A DNA stretch of 64,000 nucleotides from a plasmid. Of this stretch, positions 27,001 to 33,000 are shown one piece after another. Each line of letters opens with the position of its first letter. Within the stretch, counting starts at the first letter, position 1. The DNA is taken from NCBI RefSeq assembly GCF_057098645.1, contig NZ_JBXSPU010000002.1. The stretch is one strand, 5' to 3'. Made by a program: the position numbers.

Positions 27001-30000
27001 AAACACTCAGGTAACAACAAAAAGCATTTAAGATATTGTATTTATTATCTTTTTTAATAATCATAATGATATAGTTAATGTCATCCTTAGTGCTTCATCT
27101 ACGAGCATCGTAGACAGGGTTATAAAAGTAGTTGAGTTGGATATATCCAAAAACTGGAAACTAGGCGATGTCAGTAGTTCAATGTTTATGAGTGACTCTT
27201 GTCTGAGAAAACAATTAAGCAAAGAGAACTTAACCTTTAAAAAAATCATGTTAGATATAAAAATGAAACATGCTTCTTTATTTTTAAGAACTACTGACAA
27301 AAACATAGACGAAATATCTTGCTTGGTTGGTTTTAATTCCACGTCATATTTTATTAAGGTATTTAAGGAATATTACAACACAACACCAAAAAAATATAAT
27401 GGCATTTATTCTATTACACAAAGCACATTGCCATAATTTTTTAGAGATATTTTGAATCTTATTTGCAATGAGCACTCGAAATGAAGAACAATTTGAGAGA
27501 AGAGAAAGAAGTCGTTCTTGATGGATGTATAAATGTATTGTCATTACCTTCAGAATGGAAAGCAATTACACCTAAAAAAATAATGTCACATCGGAGATAA
27601 TAGTGTTTTTCATTCCCCCCAAGGCTTCTTATCACATTATATTAAAATATGATAACACAAAACATTGCGAATTATTTTTTTCAGACCACATCACCGGCGA
27701 ACAAGATGTTATATATTCACAAAGTGCTTTTTTCTCACATGTGATTAATCATATAATAGCTTTAGTTGATGTTCTTAATAAGAAAAGTTACGCAAGCAAT
27801 GTTATAAAATTTTTGATAACGATGGAAGGAGGCGGTGATATTCTTTCTGAATCAAAAAGAGCACCATAGTTTATCAAGTAAAAAATGACACATACACTAC
27901 TATAAATAAAGGTAATTATGGAAATAAGAGATAAAAAGGCGAAGTACTTGGAAGAAAAAGGGTTTTATAGACGAGCTGCAGATCGCTGGGCAGAGATAAT
28001 GGTACATTTATCTAGTGACGCTGAGAGAAAATTGGCAGCTCAAAAGTGTGCATTCTGCATTAATAAATCTCTACGTAATAATCTGCAAGCAGATAACTAT
28101 AGCGACATAAAACAAGGAGTTTATAAAGCATATAAGAAAATGGGGCTTGTAAATGAAAAAATATTTAGAAGCTACAAGGAAAATTAAATTATAACGTAGA
28201 TTGAGTCTAAATAACTGTTCGGAATAGTAGATCTCTCAGGGGGATCTCAGTCCGGTTTATGCTAAATAACTGCTCCTAATACCGCTACACTTTAGCCAGC
28301 CCATGTCCCCGACCGGGGAATGGGCTGACGGTATGTGCACCGTAACTGGCGCTGTTCTTCAACTGTGGTGGCTGAAGAACGACTAAGAGGTGAAAGTTCT
28401 CCACACACCCGGTGAGGGGAAGTGTTAGCGGAAGGCAAGGGTGTTCATCGCGAGGTGAAATCTGAAGGAAGCCGGATGCAAAATGCTGGCCTGACGAACA
28501 GGAAGCGGTTAAGGCGGTGCAGCGGGGTAAGGTGGTATACATCACCAAAGCCTGATACTCACACGGAACGCTGTGACGTAGAGCCGACAGGCATAAGCAG
28601 GAAAGTCGCGCGAATTACCCCGGGAGATCTGCCGTCCTGCCAGTGTGCTACCGGCGTCGTAAGGCGCAGGGATGGGGCGGCAGAAGTCAGCCGACGCCGT
28701 AGTAGTGCTGCAAAACCGGCAGCATGAAGGGCCGAACATGATTAACCGTGATTAGGACATCCGAACCCGATGATGCTTAATGAAGCACAAGCGCAGGCAA
28801 CTGCGGCCAGACGAAGCGGCCCCGCTCCAGGCGTTTGGTGAAGAGGCACAGTCCGTCGTTGTCAGCCCACAGCACTTTTATCTGGTCACCCCGGCGTCCG
28901 CGGAAGATGAACAGATTCCCGGAGAACGGGTCATCCTTCAGGACGTTCTGAACTTTTGAGGCCAGGCCGTTAAAACCATTTCGCGGATAAGTGTCTGTAA
29001 TAACGCCGGTGTCAGTTCATCTTTCAGCCTGAGAGTTCCGGCCGGCAGAACCAGCTCACAGCACAGACTGTCGGACGGTGTATTTATCTGCTCTGGTTCC
29101 TGTGCCGGATCTGGGATTTTATTATCCGGCTCCGGCGTTAACGTCACGGGAAGCAGTGCAGTCATATTTTTTCCGGAAGGCAGCAGGCCACCTTTCCGGT
29201 ATTGATGGCGCCAGTTGAAGAGCAGGTTATCATTGATTCCGTTTTCACGGGCGATCTGCGCCACACGGGCTCCGGGCTGCAGTGACTGTTCCACTAAGGC
29301 GATTTTAAACTCATAAGGAAAATTAGGCCGCCGGGGGCATTTTTTTACCACCGGGACTTCGGACATAACGGTGTTTTCAGTAAGTACGACAGATACTGTG
29401 GAGGCACTCCCGTAAAGACGGGCATCAAGTTCCCGCTCCGACATACCTGCGGGCAGAGGCCATGAAAGGCCAGCTTTGCGGAAGCGCACGAACATACCAC
29501 AAACTGTTGATTTTGGTACGCCCAGGCGATGTCCGGCCACAATCCGTGGTAAATGTTCTTCAAAGTGAAGACGTAAAGCTTCAGTGATCCAGGTCCGGTA
29601 TTCCATACGATAGTGTCCATTAAAAATGATGGACATTATTTTTGTGGAGCCGGAGGAAACAGACCGGACGGTTCAGATGAGGCGCTTACGAACAAACTGA
29701 AACTGAAGGTGAATGAGAAGAAGAGCGCGGTGGCGCGCCCGTGGGAGCGGAAGTTCCTCGGGTACAGTGTGACATGGCACAAACAGGCGAAGCTGAAAAT
29801 AGCCCTGACGAGCGTGAAGAGGCTGAAGGAGAAAGTCCGCAGTCTGACCACGGGAAACCGGAGCAAATCAGTGAAAGCGACAATCAATGCCCTGACGCCA
29901 GTGCTGCGTGGATGGATAAGCTACTTCAGGCTGAGGGAAGTCAGAGGAGTGCTGGAAGAGCTGGACGGCTGGATCAAACGGAAACTGCGGTGCCTGTTGT

Positions 30001-33000
30001 GGCGGCAGTGGAAGAGTCCGGGAACCCGGACGAAGAACCTGCAAAGAGCGGGGCTGAGTAAGGACAGGGCGATGAGCTCAGCGTACACGTGTTTGCCCGC
30101 CGGTATGTCTCTTTCAGGTGTTTTAACAGACTGATAAATAAGGACGAACCTTTACTGTTCCCACCAACGTAGCTGACTTTTCCCGTACCGCTGTGCAGCG
30201 CACCGGCAAGATAGTACTTTTCATTCTGACCCGGCGTGACAACGCGCTTTTGCTGCCCACGTAGCTGCCAGTCTGTGCGCTGACAAAACGCAGACGGTTA
30301 CCGCACAGTATGCATTTCAGCGGGTCAACCTTCAGTAACTGCTGGTAAATCCCTCTCAAGGTGATTTGCCTCGCCGTTTTTCTCACCGTCTCTGTTATGA
30401 CGTACACCACGTCTTCCAGTAACCGGCGTTTCGCCGGACTCAGGAACCCGTAGTACCTCACCATACGGAACCCCTTATCCGCCACATCATCACCACTCAT
30501 TAACAGATATTCTTCCCGTTTTGTACGGTGGCTGTTATAAAGCAGTCCGATTTCATCCTGACTGGCATAGTGCTCCAGTCGGCTCATTGGCACCGGCGGC
30601 TTTTTCAGGTAAGAGCATGAGTACACCGCCACATGCGTGGCGTTACCCATCACCCCGGATACGTTGACATTCCAGCCGCGGCGGTAATGACTGTCCAGGA
30701 AGCGATTCCATTCCCGTTTACTGCTTCCTTCAGCAACCAGCTCATCCTGTATCAACAGTTCCGGGTATTTCCGTGACAGCAACCGTGTTATCCGGTAGCA
30801 CCACATGCTCATCATCTTACGGGCGTAAAAATGAAGGTTTTTCCAAGTGTGACCTGATGTCACTGCAAAATGGCATCTAAATCGATCACGGTTTGGCATT
30901 GTCAACGACGGATGAAAAGTGGCTCTTCCGCAACCTGGGTGGAGATTTTCATGCCAGTGGACTCATTACCCTCTGCCTGAGTAGTTCAAATCCTGCTCGA
31001 CCATACATCTGGCGTTTCAGCATCTTCAGGCGATTTACATGACCTTCGACAACACCATTACTCCAGCGACTACTGATTGCCTCACATATAGCTGCAGCAT
31101 CAGCTTCCATCCCCGCCGCCACGCGCCGAAATTCTGCTGAACCGCTTTCGTGGACTCGAGTGAACCAGCTGCTTAGCTGTGATTTATTTTGGGTTTTCAG
31201 AATACGGTAGAACTCGAGTGCCAGTTGCTGCGCTATTTTCAGCTCCGGTTCTTTTTCACACATCAGACTAACAAATCGGGAAGCATAATTTTCTTCATCC
31301 TTGGTTATTCTCCAGGGCATCAACCAGCGGCTTACCCGGGACACTGAAGGAAGTCTGACGGCAGTAGTAACCGGTGGGTTCCAGCCTTTACGCCATTTGG
31401 CAACCGCATCCCTGACGATGGTTTCACTGCCTGTAAATCCCCGGGCCACCATTTCCCGCCATATCCGGCTGGCGTTATAATTACCACTTTCTCGTTGCTC
31501 TTTTAACCACTCCCTCCATGGGTCCAGAAGCCCTCGCTTTGGAGGTCGGGTTGACATTTCAGGGAATGTTCCTGAACGCACCCAGCGACTGACTGTCACA
31601 CGCGACAGGCCTGTAATACGGGATATTTCCCTGAAACTACATCCCTTGTTATGCAGGGCCATAACCTCTGTCCAGCGCTGATGCCGTTTTTTGCGGGTTT
31701 GTTGTTTTAGGCGTTCCGGATGACGGAGCGATGCTGCAGGCACAGATGGTTCTGGATCAGGTGATTTCTTTGGTGACAACTCACTGGCAACAAGACGTAT
31801 CAGAGGTATATGTCTGTACATCATTCGTTCAAGCGCATCGCCAATATTTTTTAGCAGATGCCATCGATCGGCCACCTGTCTGGCCTGAGGTGCACCTTCA
31901 CGTGCTGCTGTCGCATAGACTCCACTGCGATCACGCGAGACAACCTGTATTTCCGGATATTTTCTGAACCAGGCCGCCAGCGTACGCTGATCACGGCCGG
32001 GAAGCAGGACGAGGGGACGGTGAGTATCAAGATTGACGATTAACGTACCGTAACGGTGGCCCCGATGCCACGCCCACTCATCAATACCGACATGAGGCGC
32101 GCCTGACTGTTTCGTCTCCGGGGTATTGATAACCCTGCGAAGGAGAGTATCAGCACTGCAACGGAGACCCACTGCCGTTGCAGCCCGTTTCCCAGCCTCA
32201 CCTCCGGCGATTAATCCCAGTTGACGTTGTAAATTTTGTAACGCCTGTGAAGACTGTTGGTGTGAACCGGCGAAGGGAGCAAGCGACTCGGCAAAAATTT
32301 TACGTGAACAAGCCGGGTTACGGCAGTACCAGTGGCGGACGGAAAATACAAGCCATAGCGTATGTCCTGAGCAGGGTAGATGCTGTATCCGGCGCCGACG
32401 ACAACTATGAACAGAGTCGCTACGCTTAAAGCATTCAGGACATTGTGCTGTTTTGCGTTTTGCGTTTTGCGTTTTGCGTGGAGATGGAGGGTTATACCGT
32501 CAGGGCTAATAATTTGTTGACTGCATCGCCATCCGCAAGGTAACTGTAGAAGTGTCTTAAGAGAGTGCATTGCGTTGCCCATAACTTAAAACAGCTTAGA
32601 TCTTTGTTCACCAGAACGTTTCATCCATTTTCTTCCACCCAAGTTGCGGAAGAACCACTTTCAACAGCGGGTCTGGACAGAAAGCGGCTCTTGATGTGGA
32701 TTATCGCATGGTGTGGGCTTTCAGCGGCATGGTGACTGGAAAGTAACGATATTGCATCTGTGGCAACGAAAATTGCAGAGTTGGTACTCTTTGAACTGCA
32801 TAAGTAAGCAGAAAGGTAAGGTTATGCTTTGCGATTGAAATTCAGCCTTAACGTACAATAATTTTCGATATCCAAACTGCCCCCCTATAACAGCAAAAGG
32901 TCCCACAAGACGCTCGTGGAATATATTTTAAAAGAGAACAAAAATTGCAATATGTGGTGGCTCCATACAGAGGATTGACAACATTCCCATGCTAATTGTT

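Follow-up and report, generated by a model that had tools for sequence, protein, structure and literature searches.

The window (the whole 64,000-nucleotide stretch of plasmid DNA that we analyzed; contig NZ_JBXSPU010000002.1) contains, downstream of perC, a run of intron and insertion sequence (IS) debris, which raises the question of what intron once stood there and how it came to be broken up. The initial annotation had seen here a second group II intron of which an IS66/IS21-type mosaic had left only a remnant. Rfam matches, the GIIM profile and alignments to full-length introns bear out the intron remnant, and the features described are present close to where they had been placed and well above chance, the exceptions being the IS21 segment and the abutment of IS91. 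We put the probability at roughly 0.88 that the locus 28335-30087 is the non-functional remainder of a single copy of a class C (IIC) group II intron, E.c.I6; this reading includes the history of its decay.

The upstream piece of the intron occupies 476 nt on the plus strand (28335-28810) and carries domains I to IVa and the first 13 IEP codons, with the start codon at 28770. The RNA structure of domains I-IV is present, with RF02001 (28444-28613; 131.2 bits, E = 4.7e-28) and RF01998 (28648-28732; 69.8 bits, E = 9e-12) of Rfam both matched over the full model length across 28444-28732, and the sequence from 28337 to 28810 aligns at 97.7% identity with the beginning of a full-length intron (L002). 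A structured GC-rich region had earlier been marked at 28332-28770; it is indeed the intron 5′ region, with an exact extent of 28335-28810, and it aligns to intron RNA, not to an IS66 tnpC. Comparison of five copies placed the 5′ boundary at GTGCA (28335), a private G-to-A change from GTGCG within the conserved GUGYG motif. A 19-nt segment near the 5′ end of full-length plasmid copies is missing from the window copy.

The downstream piece (29690-30087, plus strand) encodes IEP codons 291-422, that is, the end of the RT domain and the X/maturase (GIIM) domain, and is 98.5% identical to positions 4303-4700 of L002. A maturase-domain frame had been noticed on the plus strand at 29640-30134, and the ORF in question (29613-30134) does match Pfam GIIM (E = 6.8e-22) and TIGR04416 (positions 237-353). 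Intron DNA makes up only 29690-30087 of this ORF: at its start, codons 1-25 and the greater part of codon 26 belong to the end of an IS66 element, and at its end 15 codons, with most of the one before them, are IS630 DNA. The ORF, which PGAP annotates on an identical plasmid as ‘group II intron maturase-specific domain-containing protein’, is a chimeric pseudogene.

Full-length relatives are 1919 nt long with a 1389-nt ORF, and their IEP (462 aa) contains RVT_1 (E = 2e-45) and GIIM and no other domain; in these relatives this agrees with the IIC pattern of a small ribozyme, of about 500 nt beyond the ORF, and an IEP that lacks an endonuclease domain. At our locus RVT_1 is absent according to Pfam, and by codon bookkeeping the YADD motif has gone with the deleted codons 14-290. 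The maturase piece also lacks the last 40 IEP codons, hence the C-terminus of the protein, and domains IVb, V and VI; its homology to full-length copies ends 198 nt short of the intron 3′ end, and an Rfam search of 27800-31200 returned no domain V match (RF00029) at E ≤ 1. The loss of the RT-coding part and of the 3′ end, proposed earlier, is thus confirmed and extends to domains V and VI. Since neither of these domains is present, the locus is a remnant and not a working intron, and neither splicing nor mobility is possible now. Elsewhere in the window (14190-14250) there is another E.c.I6-like fragment, of domain V and more divergent (93% identical). We rejected it as the relocated 3′ end of our copy, as it starts at intron position 1823 and not at 1722.

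The family assignment follows the rule that more than 90% nucleotide identity to a reference intron confers the same name (PMC3522654): the 5′ piece is 95.4% and the X-domain piece 93.8% identical to the intron of E. coli CFT073 that bears the Zimmerly database name E.c.I6 and is entered as class C in Table S2 of Leclercq & Cordaux (2012; PMC3522654), so that the class label of the window copy is taken from that table and linked to it by direct alignment to the CFT073 coordinates. The CFT073 intron (NC_004431, 4320108-4321914) resembles the window copy in its short-form 5′ end (GTGCRCCGTRACTGG), in its insertion after ..TAT downstream of a stem-loop, and in being ORF-disrupted itself. It differs in that both of its ends are complete (1807 nt with an internal deletion) and in that it is chromosomal and follows a classic rho-independent terminator, whereas the host of the window copy is a plasmid IS630; codons 14-290 of that copy, its IEP C-terminus and its domains IVb-VI are lost, and part of an IS66 element lies within it. 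The full-length copies on plasmids (CP088497.1, pE16EC1059-1, 1919 nt with an intact 462-aa IEP; NZ_AP028825.1, E. fergusonii) show the same IIC-type target choice and are 97.7-98.5% identical to the window copy over both retained pieces, but they keep the RT domain and domains V and VI (RF00029, 48.5 bits). The other intron in the window (24.4-26.4 kb) was considered as a member of the same family and rejected, as the IEPs are only 29% identical and the DNA does not match.

The 5′ region and the maturase fragment therefore share one family, with the same full-length copies closest to both at about 98% identity. The DNA on either side of the intron pieces likewise comes from one element. The 73 bp upstream (28262-28334, minus strand) are an end of an ISSpu2-like IS630 element (91.8% identical to the ISSpu2 reference, L006, positions 2219-2291) and constitute the 5′ exon, and the DNA downstream (30088-30273, minus strand) is transposase interior of the same type, the remains of the 3′ exon. 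With the microhomology at the junction included, window 30080-30273 corresponds to L006 2501-2694 (90.2%), and PGAP calls this downstream fragment ‘IS630 family transposase, incomplete’ on the identical plasmid. Both flanks are collinear, same-strand parts of ISSpu2, indicating that the intron had sat inside that IS. From this collinearity alone the 3′ exon would begin at about L006 position 2292, and we predict an intact 3′ junction in which the intron end ..CCTCCTACTCGAT is followed by ISSpu2 from that position. The two pieces might instead derive from different E.c.I6 copies joined by recombination, for example between two copies of IS66 or IS630. Repeated IS and intron debris is abundant enough for this (IS630 ends at 1336, 24343 and 28207; the E.c.I6-like stretch at 14190-14250), and the density of private substitutions, 11 altogether, differs between the 5′ piece (8/476) and the X-domain piece (3/398). 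However, this difference is not significant (Fisher p = 0.36), the pieces stand in the correct order and the same orientation, the same full-length copies are closest to both, and a single ISSpu2-like element supplies the flanks; we regard a composite origin as quite unlikely, and a single intron copy probably lies behind both pieces.

The position of this copy within the IS630 element resembles the target choice of IIC introns. A strong hairpin (28297-28327; -24.2 kcal/mol, z = -3.97; stability matched by 0 of 200 shuffles) is followed by the 7 nt ACGGTAT and then by the intron start. All six independent E.c.I6-type insertion sites that we compared end in ..TAT directly before GTGCR, and an upstream hairpin is significant at five of the six (the window and 4/5 relatives), two of those five being classic terminators; the site of one relative (L009) has no significant upstream hairpin. 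B.h.I1 and other IIC introns, whose IEP is without an endonuclease domain, insert downstream of inverted repeats, terminators among them (PMC1702495), and they share with the window copy a stem-loop, a short spacer and a 3-4-nt IBS1 directly upstream of the intron. In contrast to B.h.I1, the stem-loop here, a hairpin read on the antisense strand of an IS630 transposase gene, has no T-run and is no terminator. To judge from the sequence, then, the intron was seated in the ISSpu2-like element just past a hairpin, in IIC fashion.

Between the two intron pieces lies an 879-bp insert on the minus strand (28811-29689), the left-end fragment of an ISCro1-like IS66 element. It begins with IRL, continues with tnpA (from 29636 to about 28985) and breaks off at 28811 within tnpB; tnpC and IRR are missing, and this incomplete set, with tnpA kept and tnpB partial, marks it as a fragment and not a complete IS. 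The IRL terminus GTAAGCGCC, the reverse complement of 29681-29689, forms a clean junction with the intron; it represents the GTAAGCG-type terminal inverted repeat, whose counterpart IRR (GTAAGCGGC) is visible in an intact element (L003). Intact ISCro1-like elements are 2699 bp long, and the insert is contiguous with them and 96-100% identical, in two blocks, to two of them (L003 and L004). On the IRR side the deletion took with it the target-site duplication, which in this family is 8 bp long, so that the IRL end is the one at which a simple insertion can be seen. The initial annotation had put about 870 bp of minus-strand insert here, which is correct in size and in IS66 type, and had seen in it a mosaic of IS66 and IS21, which it is not. 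The curated IS66 TnpA model (NCBIfam NF038385; E = 1.5e-83) spans the whole tnpA ORF (profile positions 1-190 of 190), and the supposed IstA-like stretch falls within it; the first 101 aa match no Pfam model at E ≤ 10 and do not resemble the window’s own IS21 IstA fragment. An IS21 origin of the TnpA N-terminus was rejected on these grounds.

The IS66 insertion does not by itself account for what is missing. The missing DNA went in three deletions, all with junctions inside elements and all bounded by direct repeats of 6-8 bp. The largest (~2.6 kb, between two CGGCCAG repeats; 7 bp of microhomology) took IEP codons 14-290, and with them the entire RT active site, as well as tnpC, IRR and most of tnpB. 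The smallest removed 81 bp inside IS66 between two CATTTCGC repeats (8 bp), the remaining repeat being at 28977-28984. The third, between two AGCGTA repeats and joined at AGCGTA(CA) (30080-30087), cost the intron its IEP C-terminus and domains IVb, V and VI, and the host IS630 217 bp; the size of this deletion (415 bp) and its microhomology (6-8 bp) are approximate, as the ISSpu2 reference is only 90-92% identical. Direct repeats at all three losses point to microhomology deletions, and junctions at short repeats in the interior of elements fit slippage or illegitimate recombination, not transposase action.

These junctions also bear on the proposal that all the damage was IS activity, with an IS66/IS21 mosaic replacing the RT part and IS91 taking the 3′ end. 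An IS66-type element does occupy the intron with a clean terminal junction, and about 200 bp further downstream comes a fragment of the IS91 family (30285-30863, minus strand; 85.6% identity to the IS91-family transposase gene L007; Pfam Y2_Tnp, E = 1.7e-13), where it truncates the IS630 element. But the putative IS21 part is covered end to end by the IS66 TnpA model, is contiguous in intact ISCro1-like elements, and shows neither Pfam nor IstA similarity. Nor does an IS91 fragment start at the maturase stop, as had been stated: no Y2 transposase homology was found directly past the stop, IS91 being confined to 30285-30863, and the abutting DNA (30080/88-30273) is the interior of the intron’s own IS630 host. 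With the deletion junctions at short direct repeats and not at IS termini, we consider this proposal largely refuted and very unlikely; of loss to IS activity, one IS66 insertion stands, and the three losses at direct repeats probably do not belong to it.

The upstream flank ties the locus to a known plasmid background. The perC gene (27918-28187, plus strand; PerC-family regulator, Pfam PerC, E = 3.8e-40) is the last intact gene before the IS and intron debris, and its region is 97.5% identical to pMAR2 of EPEC E2348/69. Next to it is the end remnant of an older IS630-family element (28207-28264; 79% identical to the other ISSpu2 end, L006 3377-3322, inverted), also found downstream of perC in EAF plasmids. 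The ISSpu2-like element interrupts this remnant, and its end adjoins a TA (28263-64) common to pMAR2; the match to pMAR2 ends with ..TTTATGCTA, beyond which that plasmid runs on as IS630-like interior. Further IS630 ends are present in the window at 1336, 24343 and 28207.

From these segments we would reconstruct the following history for a single intron copy. An ISSpu2-like IS630 element would have entered the TA of the older remnant downstream of perC on an EAF-type plasmid. The intron would then have retrotransposed into it, 73 bp from the element end and on the strand antisense to the transposase, at a site 7 nt past a strong hairpin and right after ..TAT, which is normal IIC target choice. 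An ISCro1-like IS66 element presumably landed at the point of the intron ORF that separates the RT domain from the X domain, the three microhomology-bounded deletions (~2.6 kb, 81 bp and 415 bp) would have followed, and the IS91 fragment would later have severed the remainder of the IS630 element.

An identical architecture is found in nine complete plasmids (99.9-100%), six RefSeq genomes and two gut-metagenome contigs, and the occurrence of the same wreck in all three kinds of source indicates that it is not an artefact; PGAP pseudogene calls on an identical plasmid match it segment by segment. NZ_CP148340.1 is one of the identical plasmids. We searched for an intact progenitor, E.c.I6 in ISSpu2, with the 5′ junction as query. 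PLSDB yielded only the nine plasmids with the same wreck, a set of one genome per species yielded 0 matches, and a metagenome scan yielded two contigs, both with the same wreck. LR890578.1 (H10) was considered as an intermediate and rejected, as its ISCro1-like element lies directly in an IS630-like element with no intron.

Such conservation, together with an ORF (29613-30134) that is open and annotated as a protein by PGAP, could be taken to mean that the remnant is functional, its 173-aa X-domain ORF acting as a trans-acting maturase or its 5′ RNA stabilizing or terminating the perC transcript. We hold this to be extremely improbable: the conservation reflects a single recent plasmid lineage and not selection, IS DNA supplies the start and the end of the ORF, an RT domain is lacking, the window offers no intact E.c.I6 that it could serve, the conserved 5′ motif carries a private substitution, and perA and perB are frameshifted in an identical plasmid.

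The non-functional E.c.I6 remnant is a kind of object already known, ordinary mobile-DNA debris on an E. coli virulence-type plasmid. Group II introns in mobile elements that were inactivated when an IS inserted, an internal part was deleted and ends were lost have been catalogued (PMC3522654), and fragmented introns in IS-rich plasmids are the same kind of object with the same fate; those catalogued differ in class (E.c.I3, class D; RmInt1, IIB3/D) and in host IS, and an E.c.I6 remnant in an ISSpu2-like element is absent from that 2012 survey. What is mildly new is the hairpin chosen by this E.c.I6-type IIC intron: it belongs to an IS630-family transposase gene, is read antisense and lacks a T-run, and this suggests that IS-internal hairpins on plasmids are a reservoir of IIC landing sites. 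Pressing the matter further, to the reservoir as a broader claim or, more boldly, to an X-domain ORF or 5′ RNA that is still somewhat active, seems to us highly improbable. Beyond correct annotation the importance of the locus is small. It displays in one place the usual fate of bacterial group II introns, namely landing in mobile DNA, being struck by an IS and eroding at short repeats, and the shared wreck makes it easy to trace one plasmid lineage, an EAF-related E. coli family with perC, an EspP-like autotransporter and toxB.

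At 28332-30134, where the initial annotation proposed a group II intron remnant, two Rfam covariance models of group II intron domains I-IV, RF02001 (28444-28613, 131.2 bits, E 4.7e-28) and RF01998 (28648-28732, 69.8 bits), each matched over their full length, and a plus-strand ORF at 29613-30134 includes the whole Pfam GIIM domain (E 6.8e-22) and aligns with the final third of the NCBIfam group II RT/maturase model, confirming that a remnant is present. Minus-strand IS66-type coding DNA separates the 5' intron region from this ORF. Using megablast against plasmids, we found full-length introns matching both pieces. 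In the copy in CP088497.1 (L002), positions 3001-3474 and 4303-4700 correspond, in the same strand and order, to window 28337-28810 (97.7% identity) and 29690-30087 (98.5%), indicating that both pieces derive from one family. The reported lack of domain V after the maturase also held, as no domain V/VI match to Rfam was seen at E<=1 across 27800-31200. Comparison of five copies in differing contexts fixed the intron ends as ..TAT/GTGCG and ..CTCCTACTCGAT/, so the window copy begins at 28335, reading GTGCA; this G-to-A change in the fifth base of the conserved GUGYG motif is one of 11 private substitutions in the remnant.

The L002 intron encodes an intact 462-aa IEP (RVT_1 and GIIM, without an endonuclease domain), and its domain V/VI matches RF00029 (48.5 bits). 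The E. coli CFT073 copy, which is listed as E.c.I6, class C (Leclercq and Cordaux, PMC3522654, Table S2), is 95.4% and 93.8% identical to the two window pieces; given the >90% naming rule for introns (PMC3522654), the window intron is an E.c.I6 fragment. The E.c.I6 family behaves as class C (IIC): TAT ends all six insertion sites and a significant stem-loop lies upstream at five of them, two of these five (CFT073 and an E. fergusonii plasmid) being textbook terminators. Read by eye, L002 domain V starts C-CGC-CGUAU; a CGC triad in domain V is typical of IIC introns. A long form of E.c.I6 (1919 nt, intact ORF) is found in L002 and L010; the short form lacks 19 nt (CCGGGCATGGCGCGTAGCG; L002 2985-3003, window 28340) that lie six bases into the intron, flanked by GCGCCG repeats. 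Since the short form occupies at least four different sites (window, CFT073, L008 and L009), it was itself mobile or the deletion arose more than once.

The 73 bp directly 5' of the intron (28262-28334) are the terminal 73 bp of an ISSpu2-like IS630 element (91.8% to 2219-2291 of L006, an intact ISSpu2), and the 186-194 bp immediately after the end of intron homology (30080/88-30273) match L006 2501-2694 (90.2%). These flanking matches are collinear and on one strand, implying that the intron sat within an ISSpu2-like IS, antisense to the transposase gene; it begins 7 nt past a hairpin (28297-28327; -24.2 kcal/mol, z -3.97). The DNA following the maturase, initially annotated as IS91, is thus IS630, and IS91 homology starts no earlier than 30285. 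Independently, the PGAP annotation of a RefSeq plasmid with 100% identity gives tnpB pseudogene, tnpA, GIIM protein, IS630 fragment, transposase fragment and ISL3, in agreement with our segment order. Upstream of the intron, the ISSpu2-like end breaks an older IS630 remnant at a TA; this older remnant, after perC, is also carried by pMAR2 of EPEC E2348/69.

The insert at 28811-29689 consists of one reverse-oriented left end of an ISCro1-like IS66 element, which aligns with intact 2699-bp elements in two blocks (96-100% identity) and whose terminus, GTAAGCGCC at 29689, forms a clean junction with intron position 4303 (L002 numbering). It had been described as an IS66/IS21 mosaic, of which only the IS66 part stands. 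Its 232-aa ORF is the TnpA of the IS66 element, spanned by NCBIfam NF038385 (profile positions 1-190 of 190, E 1.5e-83), with the same outcome for the intact element's 225-aa TnpA. The N-terminal 101 aa, the stretch taken for IstA-like, gave no Pfam match with the cutoff relaxed to E<=10, nor do they resemble the window's IS21 IstA fragment at 33547; there is no IS21 piece.

All three deletion junctions lie inside elements at short direct repeats. At the intron/tnpB junction (CGGCCAG, 28804-28810) about 2575 bp were lost, assuming an 8-bp target duplication, taking out IEP codons 14-290 along with 1739 bp of the IS; within the IS (CATTTCGC, 28977-28984) 81 bp were lost at the tnpA/tnpB boundary; and at the intron/IS630 junction (AGCGTA(CA), 30080-30087) 415 bp were lost, made up of 198 nt from the intron's 3' end and 217 bp of IS630. 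Such junctions are a signature of slippage or illegitimate recombination, from which we infer the mechanism, and their position within elements argues against transposase-mediated adjacent deletion. IS activity, to which the losses had been attributed, is here the IS66 insertion alone and does not extend to the three deletions.

A third group II piece (14190-14250, plus strand), an E.c.I6-like IEP C-terminus with domain V, shares 93% identity with L002 intron positions 1823-1898, scores only 28 bits with RF00029 (under the gathering threshold), is cut immediately after domain V (..GGTGGTGTGA/TAGAACCACGG) and lies directly next to the 5' part of a further intron-like sequence. The "first" intron (24442-26440, minus strand; domain V/VI at 24470-24547; IEP 408 aa) belongs to a different family, its IEP being 29% identical to that of E.c.I6, and is probably E.c.I3-like, given ~97.7% DNA identity to Shigella virulence plasmid copies. 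Its ltrA is N-terminally incomplete per PGAP in an identical plasmid, and another ISSpu2-like end (24343-24439) adjoins it. Two more copies of the sequence preceding or starting it lie at 14254-14452 and 43535-43733 (~95% identity to each other's counterparts in metagenome contigs); after the former comes a 390-aa ORF (15069-16241) that may represent one more intron copy.

A degenerate perABC locus (26800-28187; perC intact, perA-like and perB-like frames broken and marked "frameshifted" by PGAP in an identical plasmid) identifies the window as EAF-related plasmid DNA, on which an EspP-like autotransporter (20088-24071) and a 3009-aa ToxB/LifA-like ORF (34226-43255) also lie. IS debris continues at 30949-34110, ahead of toxB, with fragments of IS3 and IS1, the remnant of an IS21 istA/istB fusion, and an ISL3 transposase whose ORF is 407 aa here but is annotated as a 546-aa gene in NZ_CP148340.1, one of the identical plasmids. 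A whole-window Rfam scan gave three matches to ALIL pseudoknots, which are IS3-family frameshift elements (152-268, 8655-8771 and 46246-46362), and CopA antisense RNA (IncFII-type replicon control) at 48466-48555.

The same architecture is found in nine complete plasmids of E. coli (from human, dog, swine and wastewater), six RefSeq genomes and two gut-metagenome contigs, so the remnant is no artefact and has been passed down in a single plasmid lineage; an intact progenitor was not found in PLSDB, one genome per species or a metagenome scan. The 173-aa "maturase-domain protein" is a chimera: IS66 DNA supplies one end of the ORF and IS630 DNA the other. With the RT active site and domains V and VI gone, the element is unable to splice or move, and the remnant has no function. 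It is a further example of an already known kind, from a known intron family.
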